Positions 15,305 through 37,948 of a stretch of 64,000 nt of DNA are shown here, one piece after another. The notes under the pieces were generated by a model, which worked only from the letters and a program-made list of their open reading frames with translations, ran no database searches and had not been told where the DNA came from. The position numbers and the translations under genes were made by a program. The stretch's first letter is position 1; the number at the start of each line of letters is the position of its first letter. This stretch comes from Candidatus Nanoarchaeia archaeon (GTDB taxonomy: Archaea > Nanobdellota > Nanobdellia > SCGC-AAA011-G17 > JAFCDX01), in assembly GCA_041651575.1 (NCBI GenBank), contig JBAZJB010000001.1, positions 266,609-330,608 of the forward strand. Reading direction: 5' to 3'.

Positions 15305-15658
15305 ATGGTACAATATATAGAAGCACCAGAATTAAAAGAAAGAGCGATTGAAATAGCTAAAAGATTTAATTTAAATTATATAGATTTTGAAAGAGTTCAC
15401 TTTTACAGATATTCTTGTGATACAAGAACTTGTGCAAAAATTACTGGTTTCTTTAGAACTTTACAATTGATTTATCCGCATATAAAACCTTTTTATGTTA
15501 TAACTTTTAATAATCATAATTTTGAAAGAGTTTCTAAAAGAGATCAAGATGTTACCATATTGCATGAATTATTACATATTCCTAAAAACTTTTCAGGAGA
15601 ATTTGGAAAAATAGCACATTCAGAAATAAGACGTTTGTCTAAAGATTGGATTAACTAG
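15305..15658 (+). CDS. putative metal-dependent hydrolase (DUF45/YgjP/SprT-like HExxH)
   Basis: 117 aa; C-terminal ILHELLHIPKNFSGEF resembles the DUF45 HELxHL..NHS motif. Confidence 0.4.
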   Translation: MVQYIEAPELKERAIEIAKRFNLNYIDFERVHFYRYSCDTRTCAKITGFFRTLQLIYPHIKPFYVITFNNHNFERVSKRDQDVTILHELLHIPKNFSGEFGKIAHSEIRRLSKDWIN

Positions 15659-17824: not shown

Positions 17825-20008
17825 ATGGCATCAGTAGCATCAGATAAACTTGTAGAACAAGTTATAGGTTTAATGAAAAAACCTGAACATATTAGAAATA
17901 TTTGTACTTGTGCTCATATTGATCATGGTAAAACTACATTCTCAGATAATTTATTACTTGGAGCTGGAATGATTTCAGAAGAATTAGCTGGAAAACAATT
18001 ATCTTTAGATTTTCACGAAGATGAACAACAAAGAGGAATTACTATTGATGCAGCTAACGTTTCTATGGTTCACCATTATAATAATGATCCTTATTTAATT
18101 AATTTAATTGATACTCCAGGACATGTAGATTTTGGTGGAGATGTAACAAGAGCAATGAGAGCTATCGACGGCGCTATTGTATTAGTATGTGCTGTTGAAG
18201 GAATCATGCCACAAACTGAAACTGTTTTAAGACAAGCTTTAAGAGAAAGAGTAAAGCCAGTATTATTCATTAACAAAGTTGATAGATTAATAAGAGAAGT
18301 TAAATTAACACCTGAAAAAATGCAGGAAAAATTCGTAAAAATTATTTCTGAAGTTAATAAAATTATATCTGGAATAGCACCAGAAGAATACAAAAAAGAA
18401 TGGCAAGTTTCTGTTGAAGAAGGTTCTGTTGCATTTGGTTCTGCTTTCCATAACTGGGCTTTATCTTTACCATATATGAAAACAACTAAATTAAGTTTCA
18501 AAGATGTTATTGATGCTTATGAAAAAGGAGAAGAAGCTTACAAAGAACTAGCAAAAAAAGCTCCATTACATGCAGTAGTATTAGATATGTCAATAAGACA
18601 TCATCCAAATCCAAAACAAGCTCAAGTTTATAGAATTCCAAAAATATGGAGAGGAGATTTAGATTCAGAAACAGGAAAATCCTTAATGAATTGTGATCCA
18701 AATGGTCCTGTTGCTTTTGTTTGTACAAAAATTGTTGTTGAAAAATTCGTAGGAGAAGTTGCAGCAGGAAGATTATTTTCAGGTACAGTTAGACAAGGAC
18801 AAGATGTTTGGTTAAATCTAGCTAAAAAACCAATTAGACTTCAACAAGTTTCAATTTACAAAGGATCTCAAAGATTACAAGTTGATGAAGCTGTTGCAGG
18901 AAATATTGTTGGATTAGTTGGATTAAAAGATACTTTTGCAGGAGAAACTGTTTCATCCATACCAATACAACCTTTCGAAGAAATAAAACATATTTTTGAT
19001 CCTGTAATTACTAAAAGTATTGAAGCTACAAAATCTGCTGACTTACCAAAATTAATTGAAGTATTAAGACAAGTTGGAAAAGAAGATCCTTCTATTGTTA
19101 TTCAAATCAATGAAGAGACAGGAGAAAATTTAATGTCGGGTATGGGAGAATTACATTTAGAAATCATAGAAAATAGAATTAAAACAGAAAAAGGACTTGC
19201 TGTAAAAACAAGTAATCCAATTGTATCTTACAGAGAAGCAATTACAAAAGAATCTCAAGAAGTCGAAGGAAAATCTCCAAATAAACACAATAAATTTTAT
19301 ATTAAAGTTAGTCCTTTAGATCCAAAAATTTATGATGCTATTAAAGCAGGAGAAATTCCAGAAGGAGAAGTTAAGAAAAAAGACGAAGGTACAATTAAAA
19401 AATTATTAGAATTAGGATTAGAAAATAAAGAAGCAAGATCTGTTGTTGATTTTTTCAAAGGAAATATGTTAGTTGATTCTACAAAAGGTATTGTTCACAT
19501 TGGAGAAGTTATTGAATTAGTAAAAGAATCATTCCATCAAGTTGTTACTGGAGGACCTTTAGCAAGAGAAACGGCAGTAAAAATGAGAGTTGATTTGATG
19601 GATTGTAAATTACACGAAGATACTATTCATAGAGGACCAGCACAAGTATTACCTGCAGTAAGAGATGCTATAAAAGATGCTATGAGAAATGCAGGAGCAG
19701 TTTTATTCGAACCATTACAAATATTACAAATGGAAGCTCCAATGCAATTCATGGGAGAAATAACAAAATTAATCCAAAATAAAAGAGGACAATTATTAGA
19801 AATGAGTCAAGAAGGAGAACATATTACTGTTAAAGCAAAATTACCTATTGCAGAATCATTTGGATTAGCTTCAGATTTAAGAAGTTGTACTGAAGGAAGA
19901 GGAGTTTTCTATTTAATAAACCAAGTATATGAAAAATTACCTGGCGATTTACAATTAAAAGTTATTAAACAAATCAGAGAAAGAAAAGGTCTTAGTGAAA
20001 ATCAGTAA
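17825..20008 (+). CDS. fusA: translation elongation factor 2 (aEF-2)
   Basis: 727 aa; NICTCAHIDHGKTTFSDNLL G1 motif, archaeal EF-2 architecture. Confidence 0.95.
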   Translation: MASVASDKLVEQVIGLMKKPEHIRNICTCAHIDHGKTTFSDNLLLGAGMISEELAGKQLSLDFHEDEQQRGITIDAANVSMVHHYNNDPYLINLIDTPGHVDFGGDVTRAMRAIDGAIVLVCAVEGIMPQTETVLRQALRERVKPVLFINKVDRLIREVKLTPEKMQEKFVKIISEVNKIISGIAPEEYKKEWQVSVEEGSVAFGSAFHNWALSLPYMKTTKLSFKDVIDAYEKGEEAYKELAKKAPLHAVVLDMSIRHHPNPKQAQVYRIPKIWRGDLDSETGKSLMNCDPNGPVAFVCTKIVVEKFVGEVAAGRLFSGTVRQGQDVWLNLAKKPIRLQQVSIYKGSQRLQVDEAVAGNIVGLVGLKDTFAGETVSSIPIQPFEEIKHIFDPVITKSIEATKSADLPKLIEVLRQVGKEDPSIVIQINEETGENLMSGMGELHLEIIENRIKTEKGLAVKTSNPIVSYREAITKESQEVEGKSPNKHNKFYIKVSPLDPKIYDAIKAGEIPEGEVKKKDEGTIKKLLELGLENKEARSVVDFFKGNMLVDSTKGIVHIGEVIELVKESFHQVVTGGPLARETAVKMRVDLMDCKLHEDTIHRGPAQVLPAVRDAIKDAMRNAGAVLFEPLQILQMEAPMQFMGEITKLIQNKRGQLLEMSQEGEHITVKAKLPIAESFGLASDLRSCTEGRGVFYLINQVYEKLPGDLQLKVIKQIRERKGLSENQ

Positions 20009-20514: not shown

Positions 20515-21795
20515 ATGGCAAGAACAAAACCACATATGAACATTGTATTTGTAGGTCATGTAGACCATGGTAAATCAACTACAGTTGGTAGACTATTATA
20601 TGATGCAGGTGGTATACCAGAAACAGAAATGAAAAAGCTTAAAGAAAAAGCTCAAGAATTAGGAAAAGCTGGTTTTGAATTCGCATTCGTTATGGATAAC
20701 TTAAAAGAAGAACAAGAAAGAGGAGTTACCATAGATTTATCACATAAAAAATTTATAACAAACAAATATGAATATACAATTATAGATGCTCCTGGTCACA
20801 GAGATTTCATTAAAAATATGATTACTGGAGCAAGCCAAGCAGATGTTGGTGTTGTTGTAGTAGCAGCTTCCGATGGAATTATGGAACAAACTAAAGAACA
20901 TATTTTCTTATGTAAAACTCTTGGTGTAAATCAATTAGCAATCTTAGTTAATAAAATGGATGTTGTTAATTTTGATGAAACTAAATTCAATGCAGTTAAA
21001 ACCAATGTTACAACTTTATTAAAATCAGTAGGATATAAAACAGAAGAAATTAATTTCATACCAGCAAGTTCATATTTAGGAGAAAATATTGTTAATAGAT
21101 CAACAAAAACTCCTTGGTATAAAGGACCAACATTAAGAGAACAATTAGATTTATTCAAAGAACCAGAAAAACCAACAAACTTACCATTAAGATTACCAAT
21201 TCAAGATGTATATAGTATTCAAGGTATTGGAGTAGTTCCAGTTGGAAGAGTTGAAACAGGAATTATGAAAATAGGAGATAAAGTTACTGTATGCCCAGGA
21301 AGAGAAGGTAAAGGTGTAAATGGAGAAGTAAAATCTATTGAAATGCATCATGAACAAATGACTGAAGCATTACCTGGAGATAATGTAGGATTTAACGTTA
21401 GAGGTATTGAAAAGAAAGATATAGCAAGAGGAGATGTTTTAGGACCTACAAGTAATCCTCCAAGTGTTGTTACAGAATTTACTGCTCAAGTTGTAATATT
21501 AAATCATCCAACAGTATTAACGGTAGGATACACACCAGTATTCCACATTCACACTTCACAAACAGCATGTAAATTTATAGAATTAGTTAAACAAATTAAT
21601 CCTGCAACAGGTGAAACAATAAAAGAACATCCTGATATGTTAAAAAATGGAGACGTAGCAATTGTTAAAATACAACCTACAAAACCTTTGGTAATTGAAA
21701 GACAAAAAGAAATACCACATATGGCAAGATTTGCAATCAGAGATGCAGGTACAACTGTAGCAGCAGGTATGTGCATTGATTTAGTGAAAAAGTGA
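20515..21795 (+). CDS. tuf: translation elongation factor 1-alpha (aEF-1A)
   Basis: 426 aa; [26 protein letters not shown] motifs. Confidence 0.95.
21761..21791 (+). repeat. attL-like direct repeat: last 31 nt of tuf (cagcaggtatgtgcattgatttagtgaaaaa)
   Basis: Identical apart from one transition to 37448..37478. Confidence 0.7.
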
Positions 21796-22069
21796 AATCA
21801 TGGCTTATAAGCCTTAATTCTTTATTATTTTTACATTTTATGTTTTGAAAACTAATGTATCTTGACTGCATGAATGCACTTTTTGAGTTGCTAACATACA
21901 CTTTTATGTTTCTATCAAATTGATTGTTATTGATGTCTATAAGTCTTTTATTGATAAATCTTAATTTTTTCTTTGGAATTAAGAGCATTTCTGCATCTTC
22001 ATATGTTTTGTTTACCTTTCTACACAAAGGTACATTCATTTGGTTAAAATTCATATATTTCATTTTGGA

Positions 22070-22798
22070 TTAAGGCAACGTAAAACTTACGTTTAATTTT
22101 AATTTATTATATATTTCATTTGCTAATTCTAATTTAACCTTTTCAGGATTATGATAATAATCAAATAAAAATGCTATTATAAAATCCATAAAAAATATTC
22201 TTTTAGTATATTCATCAGATTCTTGTTCTATAACTACTTTATTATCTGATAAAATTTTAATTAAAATTTTAAATGAGGAGGGGAATTGAGTTATTTTAAA
22301 AAGTAAATCATAATCTTTTTTTTCAAGTTTAAGAGTAGAATTTAAATTTTTGAATTTAAATTGATTATCTTTAATTTCAATTTTAATATCCCCGACAGAA
22401 TCAGAAATTGCTGAAAGTATTTCTTTATTATTAAAACAATCTTTAAAATAAACGCTATTAACAAAAATTAGAATGTCATCATTTTCTTTAAATTTTTCTG
22501 CTATCTTTATAAAAGGTTCTTTCCCTTCCATAATTATATATTTCCTTGATTTTCCCCTGCCATATTTATCTTCTTTAACTATTCCTATTTTAATAAAGTT
22601 TCTTAAATGATTTTCAATAGGAGTCCTTGATTTATAACTAAAGTTATATTTTTCCGTAAAATATTCTAAAATACCTCCTATTGTAGAAGATTTTTTATTT
22701 ATCAAATGTTCAAGAATAATAAGATTAGATTTTTTCGGAGGTTTTCCTTTTTGTATACTACCATCCCAGTTACAATTTTTTTTATTATTTAATCCCAT
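22070..22798 (-). CDS. hypothetical protein in the element (possible wHTH regulator)
   Basis: 242 aa. Confidence 0.35.
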   Translation of the reverse strand: MGLNNKKNCNWDGSIQKGKPPKKSNLIILEHLINKKSSTIGGILEYFTEKYNFSYKSRTPIENHLRNFIKIGIVKEDKYGRGKSRKYIIMEGKEPFIKIAEKFKENDDILIFVNSVYFKDCFNNKEILSAISDSVGDIKIEIKDNQFKFKNLNSTLKLEKKDYDLLFKITQFPSSFKILIKILSDNKVVIEQESDEYTKRIFFMDFIIAFLFDYYHNPEKVKLELANEIYNKLKLNVSFTLP

Positions 22799-22970
22799 AC
22801 ATATAATCTAACATTAACTAGTATATAAAGTTTACCTTTAATAGGTTACCTATCAAGAGTAATAAATATGATATTTTTTATAAAAAAATGAAGTAACCTT
22901 TTTTATTATAATAAAGATTACTTTTAATAAAAAAATAATTTTATTATATGTGAAATTATAATTTAAACTT

Positions 22971-23147
22971 ATGACCTATATAAAATTAGGAACGCGGAAG
23001 ATTGTGGGAATTAAGAATTCCAGACTAATCACTTTGCCTCAAATTTGGATTCTTGCAAAAGATGTAAAGAAAGGCGATTCTCTTAATATTGAAATGGAAG
23101 AAGGCACCGATAAATTAATTCTGAGCAAAATAAAGGTGATTTCTTAA
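22971..23147 (+). CDS. AbrB/SpoVT/MazE-type swapped-hairpin DNA-binding protein, unannotated short ORF
   Basis: 58 aa read codon by codon: MTYIKLGTRKIVGIKNSRLITLPQIWILAKDVKKGDSLNIEMEEGTDKLILSKIKVIS; typical AbrB pattern. Confidence 0.5.
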   Translation: MTYIKLGTRKIVGIKNSRLITLPQIWILAKDVKKGDSLNIEMEEGTDKLILSKIKVIS

Positions 23148-23151
23148 TAAA

Positions 23152-23418
23152 ATGAATAATATTACCTCAGAAGAACAAACTAATCAATATCTAGTAAAGA
23201 AAGGTATAATATTAGATTCTGGTAAACGGCTTTTGGTACTTTTACAAAGAAAAAATTTAAAACAGTCAGACCTTAGTGCAAAAATTGGTTATTCAAGGCA
23301 ATATATTAATGGGATTATACATAATAGAATAATTCCTTCTACTATTATTAAGAAAAAAATAGTTACTATACTTGAATGTGATACAATTGATATATGGGGT
23401 AATAAAAATGAAGAGTAA
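23152..23418 (+). CDS. XRE-family helix-turn-helix regulator (repressor-like)
   Basis: 88 aa; LKQSDLSAKIGYSRQYINGIIHNR HTH. Confidence 0.6.
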   Translation: MNNITSEEQTNQYLVKKGIILDSGKRLLVLLQRKNLKQSDLSAKIGYSRQYINGIIHNRIIPSTIIKKKIVTILECDTIDIWGNKNEE

Positions 23419-23435
23419 AATAAAACTCTTATTTA

Positions 23436-23487
23436 TTTATATCTATTTATTGATATTTAAATATTTATATCTATTTATTGATATTTA
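23436..23487 (+). repeat. two 24-nt direct repeats (tttatatctatttattgatattta) with 28-nt period, within an AT-rich repeat tract at 23430..23600
   Basis: Read directly; followed by aaataaata x2 and cat/att repeats; candidate operator, iteron or origin of the element. Confidence 0.5.
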
Positions 23488-23603
23488 TTATTCTAATATA
23501 TGTATATTATTTTCTTATTTAAATAAATATTTAAATAAATACCTCTTTAACTTCCTTTTTTTTATTTTATTTATTCATATTCATATTTTGGAATAAATCA
23601 AAA

Positions 23604-23945
23604 ATGGTAAAAAATTCAAGCAAGATTACGAGAACATTTAGTTTAAGTATCGAAGTAGTTAATTTATTAGAAGAAAGTGTAAATGCTGGTTACATTAAAA
23701 ATATGTCTAAATTTATTGAAGATTTAATATTTTCTAATTTGGGGAGCAGAGATTTTATCAAAAGAAAATTAGTTCAAGAAGCAGAATCAATTCGGGAACG
23801 TTTTGAGAGTATTAATTATGAATTCGAATTTAATTTTAATTTAAAAGAAAAAGAACCTAAAACCCTATACGCTCAAAGTTCTAATGTCGAGGACTTAAAA
23901 GAAGAAGTAAAAATTGTGGAGGTAGAAGAAAATGAAAGAAAATGA
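23604..23945 (+). CDS. putative ribbon-helix-helix (CopG/Arc-like) DNA-binding protein
   Basis: 113 aa; N-terminal KITRTFSLSIEVVNLLEE fits a beta-strand-helix RHH fold. Confidence 0.35.
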   Translation: MVKNSSKITRTFSLSIEVVNLLEESVNAGYIKNMSKFIEDLIFSNLGSRDFIKRKLVQEAESIRERFESINYEFEFNFNLKEKEPKTLYAQSSNVEDLKEEVKIVEVEENERK

Positions 23946-24315
23946 AAAAGAAGCACAAAAATTGCTTAATTATTTTATTAACCAATTAAAATTAAACAGT
24001 TGGAATGTGGAATTAAAATTAAAAAAATTAGAAAAAAGTACAACGGGGGAGATTAAATATGATGTAGAAACAAAAGAAGCAACAATAAATATAGATTTTA
24101 CAAATATGAATGAAAAATATAATTTAAGATATACAATTATTCATGAATTATTACATTTAGTTATTAGTGAAGAAATGTTTTCTGCTTCAACAATATTCCA
24201 AGAAGATTTTAAAAGAATGCATAGTAATTTAAGAAATTTTTTAGGTGATAGAACTGAGCAATTGACTCATCGATTTACAAAATTATTATATTCAAAAGAT
24301 AAAGGAGGTGAATAA
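23932..24315 (+). CDS. HExxH metallopeptidase-like protein (ImmA/IrrE-like or SprT-like)
   Basis: 127 aa; IIHELLHLVISEE; partnered with the XRE HTH gene upstream as in ImmR/ImmA modules. Confidence 0.4.
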   Translation: MKENEKEAQKLLNYFINQLKLNSWNVELKLKKLEKSTTGEIKYDVETKEATINIDFTNMNEKYNLRYTIIHELLHLVISEEMFSASTIFQEDFKRMHSNLRNFLGDRTEQLTHRFTKLLYSKDKGGE

Positions 24316-24317
24316 AA

Positions 24318-24488
24318 ATGCAAAAAGAAGAAGCTAAAGCACCAGATTTTGTTGGAAAGGTTCCTATTGCAATATGGAAAAATAAAGACAAAAATGGAAA
24401 AGATTATGTTACACTTAAATTGTTTGGTACAACTTTTAATCTTTGGAAGAATGAACCAAAAATAACAGAAGAAAAAATAGAGGGTTAA
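24318..24488 (+). CDS. small hypothetical protein, unannotated short ORF
   Basis: 56 aa read codon by codon; aggaggtg 8 nt upstream; followed by a gagggtt...aaccctc hairpin. Confidence 0.25.
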   Translation: MQKEEAKAPDFVGKVPIAIWKNKDKNGKDYVTLKLFGTTFNLWKNEPKITEEKIEG

Positions 24489-24549
24489 TAACTAAAAACC
24501 CTCTAAAATATATAAAAATGTAAATGCCACTATATAGTGCCATATTAAA

Positions 24550-24807
24550 ATGGGGAAAAAACATATATACAAAAAATTGATTCAAGAGATATATCTCTTA
24601 TTTAGGGGAGGAGAATTTAGATATTCGGGATTATTGCATTCTTTACCTAGAAGAGGGGTAAATTGGGAGAAAGGTAATGTTCATACTATATTAAACAGAC
24701 TTGTAGATTATGGTATTGTTAAAAAGGTAAAACGTGGAGTATACAAATTAAAAGAAAATAAAATAAGATGGATTATGAATGGATTAAAAAAAGAGGGAAA
24801 ATTATGA
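24550..24807 (+). CDS. small winged-helix-like hypothetical protein
   Basis: 85 aa. Confidence 0.3.
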   Translation: MGKKHIYKKLIQEIYLLFRGGEFRYSGLLHSLPRRGVNWEKGNVHTILNRLVDYGIVKKVKRGVYKLKENKIRWIMNGLKKEGKL

Positions 24808-25502
24808 GATATTATAATATCTATTGGTCTGAGATTTATACAAAGGCGCCAATTGATTTATATAATGTTTGTAGTATTGCAAGGAAAGTAGAAAGAAAAA
24901 TAAAATTTAAAATAAGCAAAGAAGATTTTAAACTTAATCAAAGTTTAGAGTGGGAAATAATAGGGATAGGAGCAGACATCGATATTCTTTTAGGAATAAT
25001 TATTAGCCTCATTCCAGAATTAATAGAAATTCAAAAAGATAATGAAACTAAAGATGAACTTGAAACAAAAAGAGTTATAGAAAAAACAATTGAATTTTAT
25101 ATAGGGCTGATTAAAAGAAGGGTAAATGAGCTTAATGAAGTTAATTCAAAACAAATGGGAGGACTTGCATCTATGTACCATTTAAGGACTTATTTAAACG
25201 AAATGAGTAATATACTTTACAACTTAATTTATTATCCTTTATGTAATGCATCTAAAAAATGTAATATGGATAAGAAAAAATTCTTATATTATTTTTGGAG
25301 TGAGTTGAAAATAAAATTACTTGCATTTGGTTCACCCTATAGTTTTGTATCTAAAAAAGATTCTTTAAAAATATTTGATGATATTTCTTTTGATAATCTT
25401 TATGAACCAAAACTTCAGAAAACAATTTCTGAAAATTCTTCATTAATAAAAAAAGACTTAGATGAATTAAATTCTATGGATATAAAGGATTTATTTAAAT
25501 AA
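24768..25502 (+). CDS. hypothetical protein
   Basis: 244 aa. Confidence 0.35.
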   Translation: MDYEWIKKRGKIMRYYNIYWSEIYTKAPIDLYNVCSIARKVERKIKFKISKEDFKLNQSLEWEIIGIGADIDILLGIIISLIPELIEIQKDNETKDELETKRVIEKTIEFYIGLIKRRVNELNEVNSKQMGGLASMYHLRTYLNEMSNILYNLIYYPLCNASKKCNMDKKKFLYYFWSELKIKLLAFGSPYSFVSKKDSLKIFDDISFDNLYEPKLQKTISENSSLIKKDLDELNSMDIKDLFK

Positions 25503-25547
25503 AATGATTTTAGAAACAATTATAAATAAGAAATTATTTAATAGAAT

Positions 25548-25832
25548 ATGAATAAAACCATAAAATATGCTATTTTTATATCTATGGGAATATTAGTTCT
25601 TTTAGGAGTATTCTTTTTATTCTTTTCAGGTAGAATGTCAAGAGTGTCTTGTAATATTTATGATTATGGTTCCGATAGTAGCTATACTAAAAATATTGTA
25701 TATGAAGATTTAGAAAATATGGATTGTGCTAATTGTAAAGTTTATTGTGAAAACAGATATACTATCTATGGATATCAACAAATTGGTGCAGAAATAGAAA
25801 ATAATAAATGTATATGTTATGTTAAGTATTAA
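25548..25832 (+). CDS. small secreted/membrane Cys-rich protein
   Basis: 94 aa; N-terminal TM; CANCKVYC...CICY. Confidence 0.3.
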   Translation: MNKTIKYAIFISMGILVLLGVFFLFFSGRMSRVSCNIYDYGSDSSYTKNIVYEDLENMDCANCKVYCENRYTIYGYQQIGAEIENNKCICYVKY

Positions 25833-25835
25833 AAA

Positions 25836-26033
25836 ATGAAAAGAAGTACATGTAAATTATTAATAGGTATAGGCATTATTCTTCCAATAATATCGTTGCC
25901 TTTATTTGTAATATCCTTATTTCTTTTTGTGATTGCTATAGCAAAATGGAACTCAGAAACAGAATTTAAGAGTTTAAAACAAAGAGCTAAAGTTCATATT
26001 CATACAAAAGCAAAATATAAAGATTTAGAATGA
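25836..26033 (+). CDS. small membrane protein
   Basis: 65 aa; hydrophobic core. Confidence 0.3.
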   Translation: MKRSTCKLLIGIGIILPIISLPLFVISLFLFVIAIAKWNSETEFKSLKQRAKVHIHTKAKYKDLE

Positions 26034-26305
26034 AAAAAATTAAAGTTGTTAATTTTAGTTTAGGTAAGAATAAAGTTTCTATAGAAAGATTAACAAAATT
26101 ATTTAGTGAAAATTTAGTAATAAAAGTAAATAATAAACAAATTATAAAAGAACCTACACATCGAACAGGAACAAAAAAATTTAATTTTGAAGCAGGTGAA
26201 GATAAAGTTATGATAGATATTGTATTACCTTATTTTCCTGCTAAAAATCAATATGAATGTAAAGTTTGGGTTAATGGAAAAATAAAAGATATTTATTATT
26301 TATAA
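26030..26305 (+). CDS. hypothetical protein
   Basis: 91 aa; start overlaps the previous stop. Confidence 0.3.
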   Translation: MKKIKVVNFSLGKNKVSIERLTKLFSENLVIKVNNKQIIKEPTHRTGTKKFNFEAGEDKVMIDIVLPYFPAKNQYECKVWVNGKIKDIYYL

Positions 26306-26306
26306 A

Positions 26307-26648
26307 ATGGTTTCAAGAGATATTACAATATTAAATCAAAAGATATTAATAATTTCTATAGTAGTATCTGTTTTATTATCTCAATTCGCAAATTTATTAG
26401 CTTCGCAGATGTTTTTAGATTTTTATACTAAAACTACCTTCGCTAAATTGTTTTTAATTCTTATTTATATTTTAAGTATGTTATTTCTTTGTGTTTTTTT
26501 TATAGCCGGTTTATTTTGGATATTTAATATTAAATTTAAATATATGGAATTTAAAAGATTAAAAAAAGGTTTATTTTATTGTGGTTTAATCCTATTGATA
26601 TTAATTATGGTTGGTATAATTAAATGGATATTTCTTTTAACTCATTAA
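26307..26648 (+). CDS. small multi-pass membrane protein
   Basis: 113 aa. Confidence 0.3.
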   Translation: MVSRDITILNQKILIISIVVSVLLSQFANLLASQMFLDFYTKTTFAKLFLILIYILSMLFLCVFFIAGLFWIFNIKFKYMEFKRLKKGLFYCGLILLILIMVGIIKWIFLLTH

Positions 26649-26686
26649 CTCTTCTTATTATAGTAACGGAAGAAGTATTAAATTCC

Positions 26687-27040
26687 TTAGTTTAAATATT
26701 CTTTCTTTATAAATTTCATTAAATCCGGTCTAATTCTAACAATTAGCACCTTTTCTTTGATAAGATTATAAGCTTCATCAAAATTCATTCCATTTTTAAT
26801 TAAATAAACTAATGCAACAGCATTACTTCTGCTCATCCCCCCAATGCAAATAATAACAGCTTTCTTCTTTTTCTTGATTATATTTTCAACATGCCTAACT
26901 TTAGATTGGAATTGCCCTTTATTAATTTGTTTTCCATCTATCAAATCTCTAACTATCTCAATCTCTACATTCTTCAATTTCTTTATTTTCTCAAATTCCC
27001 TTAATGGAGCTGTTCCTAGATTTTTTGTTATCCAATACAT
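26687..27040 (-). CDS. dual-specificity / protein-tyrosine phosphatase (CX5R)
   Basis: 117 aa; VIICIGGMSRSNAVALVYL is the HCxxGxxRS P-loop. Confidence 0.6.
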   Translation of the reverse strand: MYWITKNLGTAPLREFEKIKKLKNVEIEIVRDLIDGKQINKGQFQSKVRHVENIIKKKKKAVIICIGGMSRSNAVALVYLIKNGMNFDEAYNLIKEKVLIVRIRPDLMKFIKKEYLN

Positions 27041-27399
27041 TTTAGCCTACCTCGCTGTTTAACTATATTTAAATGTTTTTAATATTAAATTTTAGTATAT
27101 GAATCTTTATATAGCTTAAAAATACAATTTATAAGTGATTTAAGATGAAAGATATTAAAAATTATGAAAATATGAGCAAGTTTAAGAAAGACCTTACAGA
27201 ATTGATACTTAGAGCAGATAAAGAAAACCTTGAAAAATTAAGAGAAGCATATCCTGAACTTGTAAAAGAATTGAGAAATTAAATTATAAGTAATATTTAA
27301 TTAAAGCAACAATAGAACATAAAATTAGGAAAATTGAACCTACTATAACAAACCATCTATCTGTAAACCTTTCTGGAATTGAATATCCTTTAAAGAATT

Positions 27400-27633
27400 T
27401 CATTTTTTATCTTCTATTTTTAATTTTATATAAAAGGCAAGTAATAAAATGATTATGACTATAAGGGCATCTTCTAGTAAACTTTTTATAAATGGACTTA
27501 TTATTTTTAGAAACATAGCATTTTCTCCATTCATCCAAAAATCTATTTTAGAAATAATTAAGATTACCCCCAAGATTATTATAAAATCTATTAAATGTTC
27601 CTTAAACCAATTCCAATCTACTTCTAATTCCAT
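27400..27633 (-). CDS. small membrane protein
   Basis: 77 aa; two hydrophobic helices. Confidence 0.25.
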   Translation of the reverse strand: MELEVDWNWFKEHLIDFIIILGVILIISKIDFWMNGENAMFLKIISPFIKSLLEDALIVIIILLLAFYIKLKIEDKK

Positions 27634-27638
27634 TTTAT

Positions 27639-28493
27639 TTAAATATTAAAAATAACATCTTTAAATGTTTTTGCCTTATCTTCTTTTTGTTCTTGACAAA
27701 AAAATATATTAAATGGTTTATTTCTACTCTCATTTTTAGATTCTCTAAAATTGCTTATGAATATATTCATTAAATCCATTAAGTCTAAACATAAATTATA
27801 AAGTTCATTAAAATTATAATCTGAAAAATTTTCATAAACTATAAGACTCATGATATGGGGGTCTTTTTTTAATGATTTTGAATTATAATAAAATAGAATT
27901 TTAGAATTTTTATATACTTTATTTCCTACCTCAAAGTCTCCAGCATCTTCAAATCTTATTCTAAATCCATGTTTATAGGAATTATAAGCTTCCCTATGTT
28001 TTGTATATTCTTCTTTAATTCTTTCTAAACTTTCTTTTAAATTCATATAAGATAATTCTAATACTCCTTTAGCTTTATCGCATTGTTTATTATGGGCTGG
28101 GTAACATAAAAGTTTATTTAAACTATTATCATCTAAAGATAAGGTATCATAAAAAGATAAAACATCGTCTACTTTAAATGTATTATAATTTTGTGCAAAT
28201 TTAAACATATCATCATCTTTACTTGATACAAGTCCACCAAAATCTTCGGCTAATTTACAAAATTTTATTAGTATCTCTATAAATAATTGTCTTTTAATTA
28301 TTGACGGGTCATCATTTGGAAATATATCTTTTGTATTATCAAAACTTTTTTTTATTACCATTAAAGGAATTATAAGTTTACATGGATTTTGATGGTCCCA
28401 GAATACCTCAGAAAATACTTTGTTTAATTCACTTTCTTTTAAATTAAGTTTATCAAGTAATTCTTTTTTATATTTTGTAAGTTCTTTGCTCAT
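27639..28493 (-). CDS. hypothetical protein
   Basis: 284 aa. Confidence 0.35.
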   Translation of the reverse strand: MSKELTKYKKELLDKLNLKESELNKVFSEVFWDHQNPCKLIIPLMVIKKSFDNTKDIFPNDDPSIIKRQLFIEILIKFCKLAEDFGGLVSSKDDDMFKFAQNYNTFKVDDVLSFYDTLSLDDNSLNKLLCYPAHNKQCDKAKGVLELSYMNLKESLERIKEEYTKHREAYNSYKHGFRIRFEDAGDFEVGNKVYKNSKILFYYNSKSLKKDPHIMSLIVYENFSDYNFNELYNLCLDLMDLMNIFISNFRESKNESRNKPFNIFFCQEQKEDKAKTFKDVIFNI

Positions 28494-28682
28494 TTCTTTT
28501 TAACCAGTTTTTCCTTTTAAAGAATTTCTAATATAAAAAGGTTCGTTTTTAGTCTATTAAAAAATAGGTCTTTTCTTTATAAATAAGTAAGATACTCCTT
28601 TTTAACAAACTAAATAAATAGGAAGATTTATAAAAAGGTAAATATATACCCCAATATATAGGTTGATGGGGTTAGTTAATTA

Positions 28683-29282
28683 ATGAATAAAAACTTAATA
28701 ATTTTGGTAGGGATATTTTTAATTCTCCCAATATTTGTATCTGCTGGAATACCTCATTCAGTTTATGGATTTTTACCTAGTTCTGATGGAACAACAATAA
28801 CAGCTTATGTAGAAAGTAGACCATCGGAGATTCTTACAGATAATATTGGTATAGGTGGAAATTCGAAAGTTAATGAAGGATGGTTAATTGATATAGGAAA
28901 TTTTAATACCCCCTGGAAAATTGGTGATATTTTAATTATAGAATTTCCTAATAAAAATATAAATTTAATTTTAAATGACGCTGGAGCTCAAGAAGTAAAA
29001 TATACAAGTTCAACAAAAGCTTCTATCACTACCATAACTAATGATTCGGATAAAGAAAGTATAAGTAACATAAATCCTATTGTAGGAAATAAAACTATAA
29101 CCGAACCAAAGAAAACATTACAACAAAAAACCATAAATTCTTCAAATAAAACAGAACTTAATAGTACTTTATCTGAGAATGAAAATAACAATAAAACAAA
29201 AAACTTTATAAAGTGGGGAATCTTTTTATTTCTAATAATTATAGTAGTGGGGGTTATATTTATAAGAAAGTTTAGAAAATGA
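28683..29282 (+). CDS. secreted surface protein with shared N-domain and C-terminal TM anchor
   Basis: 199 aa; signal peptide; AGIPHSVYGF...AYVESRPSEILTD domain shared with ORFs 31483 and 32142; C-terminal hydrophobic anchor plus KFRK. Confidence 0.45.
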   Translation: MNKNLIILVGIFLILPIFVSAGIPHSVYGFLPSSDGTTITAYVESRPSEILTDNIGIGGNSKVNEGWLIDIGNFNTPWKIGDILIIEFPNKNINLILNDAGAQEVKYTSSTKASITTITNDSDKESISNINPIVGNKTITEPKKTLQQKTINSSNKTELNSTLSENENNNKTKNFIKWGIFLFLIIIVVGVIFIRKFRK

Positions 29283-31498
29283 AATTATATAATTATTTAA
29301 TATTAATATTTTTATCTTTATTTATAATATCTACTTTTGTATATGCCTTATCTGAATCTTTTTTAATAGAACAAAGCGGGGATAAATTTAATTTAGGTCA
29401 AACTATTTATGGTTTAACGGGTGGAATTAGTGATACTTACCTTCCAATTTTACTTGCAAATCAAGTTTGGGTAGATAGTCAAGGAATAAATACTGGAACT
29501 TATAATTATCAACAATTTTTAGATTTCTATGCGGTAACTAATGTTAGTACAGGAAAAGGTACTGCTGGTTATGTATATCAACAAGACTCAAATAGAGATA
29601 ATAAACCTGTAGATGATTACCTATTTTTTGATAACATCGATACTTATCAAAAATGGGTGTCCTATTGGAATGGGACTGCTGTGGTATCTGGTTATATAAA
29701 TTATACTTCTTACGCATTTGCATGGAATTATACCTTAGATATACTTGGTTCTGAAGTAAAGGTAAAAGATGCATCCGATATTGAAGGTACGGTTTTAACT
29801 ATTTTAGGAACAAATTATACCATTGCAGATGCTACTGTCAGTAATACATCATATGGTATGCTTGATAAGTTAATTTTACTTGGAGGAAATGAAATCATCA
29901 TCTTTGAGGGAGAAACTAAAAATGGAGTTACTGTTACAGGCGTTGATGTTGCTGAAACAAAATGTATAATTCAATATGATAGTACACCTTATATTATAAA
30001 TTTAGGGGAAATTCAAACAATGCCAGACGGTTTAATGATTGGGGTTTTAGACGTGACGTATATGGGAGCAGGTTTAGATATTTGTGAATTAGCTCTCGGA
30101 GCAAAGAAAATTATATTAGAACAAAATAAAGAAGTAGAAGTTAATGGAATTAGAATAGTTAATACTACTGTTAGTTTGAATGATGGAACAACAGGATTTA
30201 ATCAATTATCTATAGTTTATATTCCTACTAACAAAACATATTTGAAAGCAGGAGAATCTTTGAAAGACCCAGTTTTTAATGCATTTGCAATAACTTTAGA
30301 TAAAATTGTTGAATCCACAGAAGAAATTAAAATAGACCCACAAGGAGATAAAGTAAAATTAACTGTTAAAAATAAATTGGGAAATCCACTTAATAATTTT
30401 ACCATATGTCATTTAAATGGAACAAAAGTTTCAGGTGCAAGAAGTTTTGTATGGGGGGATGTTAATAATCCGTTTATTGCTTGGGAAGGTGCCGGGGTAA
30501 ATATTACTAATAATACTATGAATGTAGCAAGATTAGACCAAATGACGGGAATTAGATTCTTAGCAGAAGGGAATAAAGAATCACATATTTATGAAATTAT
30601 AAACATAGATACTTCCGCAAACGAAACAGATATTAAAGAACTTGATACAGGATACATTTATTATAATCTTCCTTATTATGAAGGGCGAGTTACAACTTTT
30701 AGTGATATAAACTATAATATACAATTAGCTTTTGACCAAGATACAAGTACCAAAATGCAATGGATTAATTTTACACATCTTTCAGATGCATATGGTATGA
30801 ACTATTGGACAAAGAATGGTGGAAATATTACTTTTGGTAATACTTCTTCTATGTTAAATCAAAATGCAAATGCTGTTGATAATTGTTCAATTAAATTTGG
30901 TGAAGTTGATGTATCCAAAGAATCAGGAATTCATTTAAAACTTTTGAACTTTACTTTCTTATGGGATTCAACAGACGATGAAATTGAATTTGCAAAATAT
31001 TCTGTTGATGGTTCAGCACAAAGTAAAATTGGCTCAGGTTATTTTGTTCAAAAATATAATAATGATAGTTACACAAAAACCACAAGAACCGAATATGGTA
31101 CTAAAGTTGATATAAATCTAAAGAACGATGGTGAAGCAATAATCTACTATCCAGATGAAGCTACATATGCAGAAGTTAAAATATATGCTTTAGAAAATCC
31201 TCTAACTCCAATTGGCGGTAGCGGGGGGGGCGGTGGTGGTTCGGGTGTAGTTGAATTAATAAAATCTACAAATAAAACTGGAGTTAATGCAATTTCTCTT
31301 CCTCCAAATACAGGATTAGTAAATGCTGAAGATATTTGTGATAGTATAACTTATTCAGATGCTGTAACAAAATGGGACCCTTATACTCAAATGTATAGTG
31401 GACATCCTTGTGGAACACCTGTTAATAATTTTAATTTAGAATATGCTGTTGGGTATTTTGTAAGTATTACTCAAAATTCAACATGGAGTTTACAATGA
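29279..31498 (+). CDS. large secreted surface (glyco)protein with poly-Gly linker and shared C-terminal domain
   Basis: 739 aa; signal peptide; many N-x-S/T sequons; GGSGGGGGGSG linker; C-terminal domain shared with ORF 31483. Confidence 0.5.
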   Translation: MKLYNYLILIFLSLFIISTFVYALSESFLIEQSGDKFNLGQTIYGLTGGISDTYLPILLANQVWVDSQGINTGTYNYQQFLDFYAVTNVSTGKGTAGYVYQQDSNRDNKPVDDYLFFDNIDTYQKWVSYWNGTAVVSGYINYTSYAFAWNYTLDILGSEVKVKDASDIEGTVLTILGTNYTIADATVSNTSYGMLDKLILLGGNEIIIFEGETKNGVTVTGVDVAETKCIIQYDSTPYIINLGEIQTMPDGLMIGVLDVTYMGAGLDICELALGAKKIILEQNKEVEVNGIRIVNTTVSLNDGTTGFNQLSIVYIPTNKTYLKAGESLKDPVFNAFAITLDKIVESTEEIKIDPQGDKVKLTVKNKLGNPLNNFTICHLNGTKVSGARSFVWGDVNNPFIAWEGAGVNITNNTMNVARLDQMTGIRFLAEGNKESHIYEIINIDTSANETDIKELDTGYIYYNLPYYEGRVTTFSDINYNIQLAFDQDTSTKMQWINFTHLSDAYGMNYWTKNGGNITFGNTSSMLNQNANAVDNCSIKFGEVDVSKESGIHLKLLNFTFLWDSTDDEIEFAKYSVDGSAQSKIGSGYFVQKYNNDSYTKTTRTEYGTKVDINLKNDGEAIIYYPDEATYAEVKIYALENPLTPIGGSGGGGGGSGVVELIKSTNKTGVNAISLPPNTGLVNAEDICDSITYSDAVTKWDPYTQMYSGHPCGTPVNNFNLEYAVGYFVSITQNSTWSLQ
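31223..31230 (+). repeat. G8 homopolymer within the Gly-linker coding region of ORF 29279..31498
   Basis: gcggggggggcgg read directly; genome is about 30% GC, so this run is conspicuous. Confidence 0.8.
31364..31435 (+). repeat. 72-bp perfect direct repeat (copy A) shared by surface-protein genes 29279 and 31483
   Basis: Identical to 31987..32058 (gtaacaaaatgggaccc...aataattttaat). Confidence 0.85.
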
Positions 31499-32121
31499 AA
31501 AATAAAATAAAAATCATTCAAATTTTTTGTTTGTTAATGTTATTAAGTTTACCTCTTATATCAGCAGGTACGCCTCACATTAATTGGGGTTATGTAAATG
31601 ATGCTGTAGATGGAACATTAGCAAATGGGGCTAATGTTACGGCTTATATAGAAACAAGACCTACAGAAATATTAACAGATATTGTAGGAGTTACTGGTAA
31701 TTCTGGAATATCAAATGCTTGGTTAATTGATACTGGTAATTTTCCAACTGCTTGGTCAGCAGGGAATAACTTAATAATACAAATTGATAAAAATGGTTAC
31801 AAATCAAACACAAATATAATATTAGATAACTCTGGCTCTCAACAAAGTGTTAATATGACTCTTTCAAAAATTTTAATATTAGTTAAACCTATCAATAAAA
31901 CTGGAGTTAATGCTATATCTTTATTATGGAATAGCCAATTAATTACTGCCCAGGATATTTGTAATGATGTTCAATATTCAGATGCAGTAACAAAATGGGA
32001 CCCTTATACTCAAATGTATAGTGGACATCCTTGTGGAACACCTGTTAATAATTTTAATATAGAAAAGGGAGTAGCTTATTTTGTAAGTGTTACTCAAAAT
32101 TCAACTTGGGTGATGAAATAA
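31483..32121 (+). CDS. secreted protein made of the shared N-domain plus the shared C-domain (minimal family member)
   Basis: 212 aa; N-domain AGTPHINWGY...AYIETRPTEILTD...NFPTAWSAGNNLII; C-domain NKTGVNAISL...TKWDPYTQMYSGHPCGTPVNNFN. Confidence 0.5.
   Translation: MEFTMKNKIKIIQIFCLLMLLSLPLISAGTPHINWGYVNDAVDGTLANGANVTAYIETRPTEILTDIVGVTGNSGISNAWLIDTGNFPTAWSAGNNLIIQIDKNGYKSNTNIILDNSGSQQSVNMTLSKILILVKPINKTGVNAISLLWNSQLITAQDICNDVQYSDAVTKWDPYTQMYSGHPCGTPVNNFNIEKGVAYFVSVTQNSTWVMK
31987..32058 (+). repeat. 72-bp perfect direct repeat (copy B)
   Basis: See copy A. Confidence 0.85.
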
Positions 32122-32141
32122 AAAGAGTTATATATTATTAA

Positions 32142-34832: not shown

Positions 34833-35157
34833 AAATACTAATTAAATTATTTGTAATTTCTTTAATAAGTTTATTTAATTGTATTCATTCTTCATATCTT
34901 TATTATAATAGGATTCAGAAAAAACAATAAAATAACCTATTTATTTTCTCTATCAATCTTTTCTCTTATAGCTCCTAAAACAAATTCTGCTCTTGACCTA
35001 TATCCTTTCTTACTCTTTTTCCAGGTTTTATCAATTTCATTGATTAACTCTGAAGGAACACTAACATTTACATAATTTTTTCTCATACTGTATATGTACC
35101 AAAACATTTATATAGCCCTTTTTGTTACCCATACCGTATAGAAAAAGAGGTTAGAAA

Positions 35158-35520
35158 ATGAAAATTAAATTAATAATCGGATTACTTATAATTTCTATAT
35201 TTTTAATAAGTGGATGTAATCAAGAAAATATTAATCCTGCTCCCTTGAATTGGCAAGAATTATTAGATAATTGTCAAAAAAATTTAGATGAATGTAAAAT
35301 GCTTGGAATTCCAAAAATAACAGAATTTACTATTAATACTGAAGATTTAATAGGAAAAAAAATTGACTTTGATATATGTAAAATAGAATGGGTGAAACAA
35401 AACCCAGATTTACCTTTACCTAGTCAATGTTCTATTCAAGTTTGGGGGAACCAATTTCAAAAAAATCCAGATAAATTAATAAATTTAAAAGTTTTTTGTG
35501 ATTGTTGGTATAAAGAATGA
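35158..35520 (+). CDS. small lipoprotein (LISGC lipobox-like)
   Basis: 120 aa. Confidence 0.4.
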   Translation: MKIKLIIGLLIISIFLISGCNQENINPAPLNWQELLDNCQKNLDECKMLGIPKITEFTINTEDLIGKKIDFDICKIEWVKQNPDLPLPSQCSIQVWGNQFQKNPDKLINLKVFCDCWYKE

Positions 35521-36260: not shown

Positions 36261-36285
36261 TCTTTCCATTTTTATAATTTAAAGA

Positions 36286-36936
36286 TTAAATAAAAATTTT
36301 ATCTAACTCCACTTTTTCTTTTTCTATACCAATATGCGTATAAATTTGTGTAGCCCTGTTATCTGTATGCCCAAGCATTTTTCCAATAGCCAATAAGTCC
36401 ATACCTTTATTATAAAGATATGTTGCATACGTATGTCTTAATGTATGGAACCTATAATTGAATACTTTTCTGCCCTTACTATCAAATCCGATTGAGGTTC
36501 TTATACCTGCCTTTTCTAAATGACTATTAAATTTTTTTCTCATCACAGAAATGTTATATTGTTTATCTAATCTCAAACGCATAGGGAATAGATATTTACT
36601 ACCTCCTATATACTGCAACCATTTATCCAAAAGTGGAATTAATGGTTTTGGTATTGCTACATTTCTATCTTTACCATATCCTTGAACAGACCTATTTGGA
36701 TTTTTAGAATCTTTTATAGATAAAACTCGATTATATATATCGATGTCTTCTACTTTTAATTTACATAATTCTCCAATTCTTAATCCACAAAAAAACCCTA
36801 ATAAATAAGCCATCATATAAAGAGGTTCATTTACCACCCCAAATAATCTTTTTAATTCTCTTATTTCAAATACTTTTGGTAGTTTATATGGTGATTTCGC
36901 TTTGTCTCCTCTAAACATTTTCGTCAAGCCTCCCAA
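36286..36936 (-). CDS. int: tyrosine recombinase/integrase, catalytic domain
   Basis: 216 aa; GLRIGEL (Arg), HTLRHTYAT (HxxR), TQIYTH (Tyr nucleophile). Confidence 0.7.
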   Translation of the reverse strand: MGGLTKMFRGDKAKSPYKLPKVFEIRELKRLFGVVNEPLYMMAYLLGFFCGLRIGELCKLKVEDIDIYNRVLSIKDSKNPNRSVQGYGKDRNVAIPKPLIPLLDKWLQYIGGSKYLFPMRLRLDKQYNISVMRKKFNSHLEKAGIRTSIGFDSKGRKVFNYRFHTLRHTYATYLYNKGMDLLAIGKMLGHTDNRATQIYTHIGIEKEKVELDKIFI

Positions 36937-37327
36937 TTAATTTTCTTCCCATTTCAAGAATTTCTAAACCCAAACAAGCTTTTTCTCTTTTGAGAACATT
37001 AGCATTTAACATTTTAGCCCGTTTTGGACTTAGCATTTTGTTCTTTATTTTTTCTTTATAATGCTCTGGAATTAATGTAGTATCCAAATAGTTGAATGCT
37101 GTTATTGGACTTATTCCAAATTTTTCCATACCTTCTTTGATTTTCTTCTCTATTTCTGCTAGTTCATATTTGTAATATTTCTGGTTCCTTATCCTCGATA
37201 AATGATACATTATGGTCTTAGTAGATAGCTCTAATTGCGTTATTGTCCTAACCACCAACCTAACGTATTCCGCCTTGAAAAAGACGTCTGTATTCTTCTC
37301 TAATGCCATTTTTCCTATTATATCCAT
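36911..37327 (-). CDS. int: integrase N-terminal (SAM-like/core-binding) domain in a different frame from the catalytic part (frameshifted or split integrase)
   Basis: 138 aa; 26-nt overlap with the catalytic ORF; one indel would fuse them into a ~345-aa integrase. Confidence 0.4.
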   Translation of the reverse strand: MDIIGKMALEKNTDVFFKAEYVRLVVRTITQLELSTKTIMYHLSRIRNQKYYKYELAEIEKKIKEGMEKFGISPITAFNYLDTTLIPEHYKEKIKNKMLSPKRAKMLNANVLKREKACLGLEILEMGRKLIGRLDENV

Positions 37328-37447
37328 CTTAAGTACCTCCTATATTTTAATTTAGATGTCAGAAAAAGGGTTACCCCAAAACTGAAAAAAATAGGTAAAA
37401 AGTACCCAAATAATATAAATTTGGATTTAAATTTTGGTAGTGAGCTC

Positions 37448-37478
37448 AGCAGGTATGTGCATTGATCTAGTGAAAAAA
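37448..37478 (+). repeat. attR-like direct repeat: duplicated tuf 3' end, still encoding ...[11 protein letters not shown]-stop
   Basis: 30/31 identity to 21761..21791; reading frame conserved with synonymous substitutions (tta->cta, aag->aaa) and its own stop. Confidence 0.7.
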
Positions 37479-37504
37479 TAAATTCTTAAAAAATTTGGTG
37501 ATTA

Positions 37505-37906
37505 GTGTACAAAATGAAGTATTATACAGAAAAAGCATTAGGACAACTAATTTGTGAAGAATGTGAAATTGAAGAAGATGCAACTTTTGGTATACAAAAT
37601 GAAACAAGTGCATTAGTTGAAGTTAATATACCAAATCCATTCAAACGTGAAAAAGGTATATTTAAAGATGTCACTCAAAATAATGGTATAAGTGTTATTC
37701 AAGCCATAAGAAAATTTTATCTTGGAAATCAGTTTGAGTTAATAGGAAATGAGCTACAAACAAAAGATTGTGCTGAAAAGGAAATAATTTTTTATACTGC
37801 AGAAGCAAGAAGAAATAAAATAATTCATAAAATTGAAGTATCCATAAGAGATTTAGAATATTTAGATACTTTTTTAATTTATATTCAAGGAAATAGACCA
37901 TTATAA
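37505..37906 (+). CDS. hypothetical protein
   Basis: 133 aa. Confidence 0.3.
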   Translation: MYKMKYYTEKALGQLICEECEIEEDATFGIQNETSALVEVNIPNPFKREKGIFKDVTQNNGISVIQAIRKFYLGNQFELIGNELQTKDCAEKEIIFYTAEARRNKIIHKIEVSIRDLEYLDTFLIYIQGNRPL

Positions 37907-37948
37907 AAAAACTTAAAGGTCTAATTTCCATAAAACAAAATTCTTTTT

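Follow-up and report, generated by a model that had tools for sequence, protein, structure and literature searches.

How might an integrated mobile element of a DPANN archaeon stay silent or become activated, and what do the small genes at one end of it do? The locus that raises these questions lies in a 64-kb stretch of DNA (the window, by which we mean the whole stretch) from a metagenome-assembled genome of Candidatus Nanoarchaeia, a DPANN archaeon. In it, genes for small putative DNA-binding proteins stand next to a gene for a metallopeptidase-like protein. A reading made from the letters alone, without database searches (the sequence-only reading), had proposed that they form a repressor/operator/anti-repressor switch for a mobile element. 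The account that we prefer, which we regard as an even call, is that a 15,686-bp tyrosine-recombinase element sits in the 3' end of the gene for elongation factor 1alpha (EF-1alpha), that the cluster is where its regulatory or early genes lie, at one end, and that an XRE-family regulator and two palindromes would control an operon for a ribbon-helix-helix (RHH)-like protein and a zincin metallopeptidase. By analogy with better-known systems, a protease-driven lysogeny switch at the cluster is possible.

Are these genes in a mobile element at all? The answer comes from a sister genome (L011, isolate STD1_207) that we found by scanning genomes with EF-1alpha. Its own EF-1alpha matches the one in the window at 96% identity, and aligned segments of the two genomes have 90-99% nucleotide identity. 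In the window, the genes for elongation factor 2 (EF-2; 17825..20008) and EF-1alpha (20515..21795) lie upstream of the regulator cluster, and an rRNA operon, the RNase P RNA, and a tRNA-His gene lie downstream. The sister genome has the empty site: directly after EF-1alpha come a 164-aa gene, the gene for ribosomal protein S10, and the rRNA operon. Homology breaks at 21799 and restarts at 37938, and the insertion itself is 15,686 bp (~21792-37477), in the 3' end of the EF-1alpha gene. It is flanked by two copies of a 31-nt attachment (att) core that match at 30 of 31 positions. The left copy (attL, 21761..21791, plus strand) is the coding 3' end of EF-1alpha, and the right copy (attR, 37447..37477, plus strand) is followed by the original TAA stop context. 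The copies are 15,686 bp apart, and none of 100 shuffles gave such a match. At the left junction, the final Lys codon takes its last base from the element, which also brings a new stop, TGA; the ancestral AAA-TAA context survives at the right copy, as in the sister genome. The catalytic domain of a tyrosine recombinase (36286..36936, minus strand; 216 aa with a TTG start; PF00589, E = 7.3e-27) sits 510 bp inside attR. With an integrase, flanking direct repeats, and an empty site, this is a site-specifically integrated mobile genetic element, and on this point the sequence-only reading was right. Because the att sites and the integrase delimit the element, the regulator cluster is its attL-proximal 1-3 kb. 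Excision would be expected to give a circle with the attP junction ...GGTAGTGAGCT-CAGCAGGTATGTGCATTGAT[C/T]TAGTGAAAAA-GTGAAATCATGGC... and an emptied site with the attB junction ...ACAACTGTAG-core-ATAAATTCTT...

Two independent assemblies of the locus agree fully (there are identical contigs in ENA ERZ27247363 and Logan SRR8542065). The window has ~26% GC, and the GC content of the element is below that of its flanks. Profile searches with the element's proteins (Pfam, PHROG, NCBIfam, and PADLOC-type) recognised no capsid, terminase, Rep, or conjugation gene. Integrative mobile genetic elements of archaea that insert in the 3'-distal parts of protein genes and bring a replacement stop codon have been described (PMC6563490). 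Our element is like those of Thaumarchaeota, and like the casposons that target EF-2, in using the 3' end of a translation-factor or other protein gene in this way (PMC6563490). It differs from them in its EF-1alpha target, its DPANN host, and its tyrosine integrase rather than a casposase. We considered EF-1alpha as a recurrent integration hot-spot and rejected the idea: the integrases downstream of EF-1alpha/S10 at three other loci (L030, L054, and L063) are generic Xer-like recombinases beside toxin-antitoxin (TA) pairs, in unrelated elements. Beside our integrase, a 138-aa open reading frame (ORF; 36911..37327, minus strand) precedes and overlaps it in a different frame. Perhaps the N-terminal domain of the integrase is split or carries a frameshift, and this would matter for the element's present mobility. 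Another ~458 bp past attR (37480-37945) are also missing from the sister genome; this segment is bracketed by AAATTCTT, holds a 133-aa orphan ORF (37505..37906), and may have been left by a previous insertion into this site.

Which regulators does the element carry near attL? An 88-aa protein (23152..23418, plus strand) is an XRE-family helix-turn-helix (HTH) regulator, as had been proposed: it matches PF01381 (HTH_3) with E = 3.8e-7 and 30.5 bits, above the gathering threshold of 23, and the transcriptional repressor family phrog_3 with E = 4.4e-7. Its nearest solved structure in the PDB is the dimeric repressor CylR2 (E = 3.7e-6). The gene is the second of a bicistron. The first (22971..23147, plus strand) encodes 58 amino acids, and its stop codon does lie 4 nt before the ATG of the XRE gene, whose Shine-Dalgarno (SD) sequence, AGGTGAT, complements the 3' end of the 16S rRNA and couples it to the upstream gene. 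The 58-aa ORF is unannotated in the sense that it is missing from the NCBI annotation of this genome, though it was called by JGI/Logan. Is it an AbrB/SpoVT-like swapped-hairpin protein? Its best profile matches are MazE_antitoxin and doc_partner, both sub-threshold (PF04014, E = 1.8e-3, with 18.6 bits vs a gathering threshold of 24.7; TIGR02609, E = 2.2e-3). It is also 47% identical over 43 amino acids (pairwise E = 3e-9) to the N-terminal SpoVT/AbrB domain of a Woesearchaeal AbrB-PhoU protein, a domain that itself scores 23.9 bits with PF04014. The three lines of evidence are weak but concordant, and we accept the protein as AbrB/SpoVT-like on the strength of profiles and pairwise identity, even though its PF04014 score is under the threshold.

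The XRE gene is followed by an AT-rich tract, which is 185 bp long (23419-23603) and not 170 bp as first reported. Its GC content is 10.8%, and no other stretch of 185 bp in the window is as AT-rich. It contains the two 24-nt direct repeats that had been described, TTTATATCTATTTATTGATATTTA, which are identical and lie at 23436-23459 and 23464-23487; none of 100 dinucleotide shuffles gave two matches. Tandem Repeats Finder stretches each copy to 26 nt, giving a tandem direct repeat of two exact 26-nt copies with a period of 28 (23434..23487, plus strand; 100% match, score 108, with a 14-nt sub-period repeated 4.3 times), and this is the top-scoring tandem repeat in the window. Exact, never seen in 100 shuffles, and the best tandem repeat of the window, the repeat cannot be put down to low complexity alone. 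A perfect 18-bp palindrome, ATATC-N8-GATAT, occurs in each unit. The repeat begins 16 nt past the XRE stop codon and ends at 69 nt past it, which puts it 117-170 nt before the ATG of the next gene. No Rfam family matched the spacer, and its fold z-score is only -2.0. On this pattern, the repeat is a candidate operator pair; alternatively, the copies may be iterons.

On the far side of the spacer are two overlapping genes. The upstream one (23604..23945, plus strand) encodes a 113-aa orphan with an acidic tail, and the residue pattern of its N-terminal ~45 amino acids is beta-alpha-alpha, as in RHH proteins. A single-sequence AlphaFold2 model is poor (mean predicted local distance difference test, pLDDT, of 44.5) and has an extended segment near residue 10 and helices at 16-27 and 34-43, which is only compatible with that pattern. 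The 113-aa gene overlaps the downstream gene by 14 nt. The latter (23932..24315, plus strand; NCBI WC413_01535) encodes 127 amino acids with HELLH at residues 71-75 and, by its family profile, a minimal HExxH(+E109) zincin of the SprT-like/minigluzincin/phage-metallopeptidase type. So the HELLH protein noticed in the sequence-only reading exists and belongs to a real family of HExxH zincins.

What sort of zincin is it? It matches SprT-like PF10263 with E = 3.8e-4 and 20.7 bits, below the gathering threshold of 25.6. A word-indexed search recovered only the protein itself, while exhaustive searches with HMMER found 15 distant relatives of ~90-200 aa, in which H71, E72, and H75 are invariant and Trp24 is nearly so. 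A profile of these relatives recovers more than 970 proteins. Weak SprT-like matches occur in 8 of the 15 relatives, and a match to PF06114 (M78) in 1 of 15 (E = 2.6e-3). In the PDB, the family profile finds selecase MJ1213 (E = 2.7e-4), proabylysin (E = 1.5e-3), the WLM protease, and Spartan; it finds no IrrE, ImmA, or CapP chain at E <= 10. The protein itself has no match to PF06114 (Peptidase_M78/DUF955) at E <= 1, and it matches the CapP profile of PADLOC weakly (E = 3.9e-5). The supposed resemblance to ImmA or IrrE is thus not borne out: the nearer relatives are SprT-like proteins, selecase, and proabylysin. Judged by these comparisons, the 127-aa protein is a genuine minimal zincin whose family is associated with phages and has no Pfam annotation, nearer to SprT-like proteins and minigluzincins than to ImmA/IrrE. 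It shares with minigluzincins (selecase MJ1213, proabylysin, and projannalysin) and with SprT-like, WLM, and Spartan proteases a size of ~110-130 aa and a probable layout of helix, beta-hairpin, and HELLHL helix; these are its best PDB and Pfam matches and those of its family, all with scores below curated thresholds. In minigluzincins and SprT, the third metal ligand is His. In contrast, the corresponding conserved position is Glu in the zincin and in 12 of 14 relatives, and His in the other 2, so the family as a whole does not show the third His ligand.

The neighbors of its homologues are varied. One homologue, in an early gene cluster of a phage, has an ArdC-like gene as its neighbor, and another follows an HTH_3 gene and an exonuclease gene. 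In one case, a 198-aa protein (P0007) fuses an N-terminal RHH_10-like domain (E = 2.6e-3) to the zincin and is followed by an RHH-looking ORF (L096, a 1139-bp contig from JGI 3300037341). This fusion was seen once among the ~150 family matches listed, so the link between the zincin and RHH partners is a single case and not general. A tblastn search with the zincin against GenBank phages gave no match. As a separate observation, a second small HExxH protein is encoded in the window outside the element (15305-15658, plus strand). It matches PF18894 (PhageMetallopep) with E = 1.7e-13, its gene has 96.7% nucleotide identity to its counterpart in the sister genome, and the islands on either side of the gene are not the same in the two genomes. 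When we aligned it to the zincin family with hhalign, only the HELLH segment aligned (probability 66%).

How are these genes likely to be expressed? The 3' end of the 16S rRNA is GGATCACCTCC, and the XRE gene, the zincin gene (with GGAGGT), and a 56-aa orphan ORF that comes third in the RHH-like operon (24318..24488, plus strand; a strong GGAGGTGA and no family match) have 6-8-nt SD matches. The idea that the 56-aa ORF resembles DUF736 was unsupported by profile searches. The genes for the AbrB-like protein, the RHH-like protein, a divergently transcribed 242-aa protein, and an 85-aa winged-helix protein lack an SD and have TATA-like boxes ~27-35 nt upstream, like EF-1alpha and EF-2; the one for the RHH-like gene is TTTATTCATA, ~30 nt upstream. 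Because SD sequences mark the internal genes, and TATA-like boxes without an SD the first genes, the arrangement suggests four transcription units: the 242-aa gene, leftward; the AbrB-like and XRE genes; the RHH-like, zincin, and 56-aa genes; and the 85-aa winged-helix gene with a 244-aa gene. The tandem repeat falls between the second and third predicted units. The zincin would thus be coupled to the RHH-like gene and not to the XRE gene, which is 185 bp off in a separate predicted unit upstream. A scan for bacterial sigma-70 promoters and terminators was uninformative, as the host is an archaeon.

The 242-aa protein (22070..22798, minus strand) is an orphan with an N-terminal winged-helix-like region (weak matches to the winged HTH (wHTH) families DUF2551, E = 0.021, and ORC1, E = 0.044), and it is a candidate for the main regulator of the element. 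Its gene and the AbrB-like gene diverge from a 172-bp promoter region (22799..22970; no strand assigned) with 14.5% GC; the second most AT-rich 185-bp stretch of the window is 22775-22959. A perfect TTTATATA box lies on the minus strand at 22822-22829, ~27 nt upstream of the ATG of the 242-aa gene, which has no SD. The region also holds 4 of the window's 22 matches to [GT]T[AT]ACCT[AT]T (kTwACCTwT), as compared to ~0.06 expected, for a motif that was picked post hoc. The copies GTTTACCTTT, GGTTACCTAT, and AGTAACCTTT cluster at 22831-22901, and one copy probably doubles as an element resembling the transcription factor B recognition element (BRE) beside the leftward TATA box. In the fourth unit, the 85-aa protein (24550..24807, plus strand) is an AbiEi-like wHTH protein (PADLOC AbiEi, E = 9.1e-6; Pfam Penicillinase_R, E = 1.8e-3), and the 244-aa orphan ORF (24768..25502) overlaps its gene. 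Between the TATA-like box and the ATG of the 85-aa gene is a 20-bp near-palindrome, ATGCCACTATATAGTGCCAT (24524-24543), a position that would be typical of an autoregulatory operator. A further small protein, encoded far from the cluster but within the element (34937..35107, minus strand), has weak RHH_1 and HicB_lk matches and is annotated by NCBI as a ribbon-helix-helix domain protein; from its sequence, it makes a convincing RHH protein.

If our preferred account is correct, then the divergent 242-aa wHTH gene and the AbrB-XRE pair would make up a decision module that sets the state of maintenance versus activation. A dimer of the CylR2-like XRE protein, possibly together with the AbrB-like protein, would bind the two ATATC-N8-GATAT palindromes and so gate read-through or initiation into the downstream operon for the RHH-like protein, the zincin, and the 56-aa protein. 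The zincin might process a DNA-binding partner, and the RHH-like protein, being translationally coupled to it, is the obvious candidate. In having divergent small regulators beside an att site and two identical 18-bp palindromes 28 bp apart, the cluster is like the CI/Cro switches of temperate phages. Unlike those switches, it has its palindromes past the end of the XRE gene and not between the divergent genes, its promoters are of the archaeal BRE/TATA type, and it lacks an autocleaving (S24) domain. Among archaeal viruses, SSV1 has an RHH lysogeny regulator, F55, that binds tandem repeats. Archaeal viruses typically carry many small RHH, wHTH, and AbrB-type regulators, and so does this element.

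Several observations weigh against the preferred account. The 24-mer, its 14-mer core, and ATATC-N8-GATAT have no copies in the window or the element beyond the two in the repeat, so the further operator copies that might have been expected are missing; the 13-mers that the intergenic regions share with the rest of the element are no more than chance would give. The best TATA candidate for the RHH-like operon is not covered by the repeat, which lies ~80-130 bp upstream of that box. The 113-aa protein matches no RHH family at E <= 10, even when its N-terminus is isolated, and has no match in the PDB, so the assignment to RHH made in the sequence-only reading holds only at the level of the residue pattern. 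Some zincin homologues stand by themselves on the chromosomes of Clostridia and other bacteria, and in two tailed-phage contigs (L010, 4971-5579, and L092, 5001-5396) the homologue comes directly after a presumed portal gene that itself follows the large terminase. Because the homologues mostly stand alone or follow the portal gene, a general regulatory role for the zincin family is disfavored; the placement next to the portal hints at a role linked to morphogenesis for part of the family. Finally, there is little comparative material. We found no related element in IMG/VR or in JGI metagenome contigs, and all of the cluster's proteins are singletons at 90% identity among ~15 billion proteins. 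Scans of viral contigs with the zincin, the RHH-zincin fusion, the integrase, and the XRE protein gave nothing except one distant phage locus (L010, mentioned above), and metagenome scans for the att core (attP/attB junctions) and for XRE relatives found none.

Could the repeat and the zincin have nothing to do with a switch? The main rival to our account, which we consider unlikely, is that the repeats are iterons or the DNA-unwinding region of an origin, or else a functionless slippage duplication, and that the zincin has a phage-type job that is not regulatory (morphogenesis, anti-defence, or the processing of DNA-protein crosslinks). Tandem direct repeats in the segment with the lowest GC content are classic origin anatomy, and perfectly identical copies are what a recent duplication would leave. 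The repeat is at no other promoter and does not cover the predicted core promoter, and in phage contigs zincin homologues come after the genes for terminase and portal or next to ArdC. Furthermore, SprT, Wss1, and Spartan, which are relatives, are DNA-protein crosslink proteases, and Wss1 and Spartan are classed with the minigluzincins (PMC4559962). On the other hand, none of the profile searches recognised a replication initiator adjoining the repeat; the perfect 5-N8-5 palindrome in each unit would fit an HTH dimer; and the repeat directly follows the gene for an HTH protein. Another possibility is that these are addiction modules that help to keep the element stable: a MazE-type AbrB antitoxin and its partner, a zincin toxin countered by an RHH antitoxin, and the 244-aa protein together with an AbiEi-like wHTH. 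The gene pairs are indeed tightly coupled or overlapping, the 58-aa and 85-aa proteins find MazE_antitoxin, doc_partner, and AbiEi as described above, and TA pairs stand beside integrases downstream of EF-1alpha/S10 in other Woesearchaeota. Nevertheless, this seems highly improbable to us. Searches of Pfam, NCBIfam, and PADLOC gave no toxin family for the 88-aa, 127-aa, or 244-aa proteins, and AbiEii/NTase families do not match the 244-aa protein. The partner of the AbrB-like protein, the 88-aa XRE protein, is another DNA binder, and the zincin family is mostly solitary.

What about a literal switch of the ImmR/ImmA kind, in which a stress-activated zincin would cleave the XRE or RHH-like repressor at the repeats and so cause excision? 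In ImmR/ImmA (ICEBs1), IrrE/DdrO (Deinococcus), and CapH/CapP (from CBASS, the cyclic oligonucleotide-based anti-phage signaling system), an XRE repressor is paired with a COG2856/M78 metalloprotease, and the logic is known from IrrE/DdrO (PMC6868357) and ImmR/ImmA (PMC6540685). Our cluster likewise has a gene for a small DNA-binding regulator beside one for an HExxH metallopeptidase with a conserved downstream Glu, as in M78, in an integrase-bearing mobile element. The zincin is translationally coupled to the putative DNA-binding protein, one RHH-zincin fusion exists, and there are the weak matches to CapP and, in one relative, to PF06114. But the protease is not an M78 protein by Pfam or by the structures that its family matches, its coupled partner is RHH-like, the XRE gene is neither adjacent to the zincin gene nor, as far as predicted units go, co-transcribed with it, the 127-aa zincin has no sensor domain, its homologues occur in non-regulatory contexts, and the host is an archaeon. 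We think that this literal version is quite unlikely. A bolder version is that the RHH-like protein and the zincin are a new class of repressor and anti-repressor, like ImmR/ImmA in function but with other folds, that controls the induction of the element, which would then be the first regulated integrative element described in Nanoarchaeia; this strikes us as very unlikely. Of the switch proposed in the sequence-only reading, then, the XRE protein, the zincin, the repeats, and the mobile element are real, the AbrB-like protein has weak but concordant support, and the RHH family, the M78 identity, and the additional operator copies are not supported. Because the zincin does not match M78, the RHH assignment is unsupported, the XRE gene is in a separate predicted unit, and the repeat has no further copies, we view the switch as a reasonable analogy and not as demonstrated membership in a known class.

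The rest of the element is of a different character. About half of it (28683-36260) encodes proteins with signal peptides, of 199, 739, 212, and 896 aa, along with two lipobox proteins. The 896-aa protein carries repeated CD[YF]CTP Cys motifs, and none of these proteins reaches the Pfam threshold. Possibly they are cargo that serves an episymbiotic DPANN cell at its surface or in attachment. Outside the element, the window also has strain-variable islands with no nucleotide match in the sister genome (13453-15264, 15657-17643, 20008-20468, and 44265-45774), interleaved with conserved genes.

Elements that combine an integrase with clustered small regulators are a well-known kind of system. This instance is new because of its DPANN host, its EF-1alpha target, and its orphan components, and both the mobile elements and the gene regulation of DPANN archaea are almost unexplored. 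The locus offers a delimited element, whose empty site is present in a sister genome, and a precise att core in an essential translation-factor gene. It also offers five or six small DNA-binding proteins and one outstanding candidate cis-element, the tandem palindromes. Together, these are a parts list for asking how such an element stays silent or becomes activated. The ~7.5 kb of the element that encodes secreted and lipobox-bearing proteins could alter the attachment of an episymbiont to its host. And because the zincin family is large and unannotated, any function that is assigned to this zincin would extend to many phage and clostridial genes.

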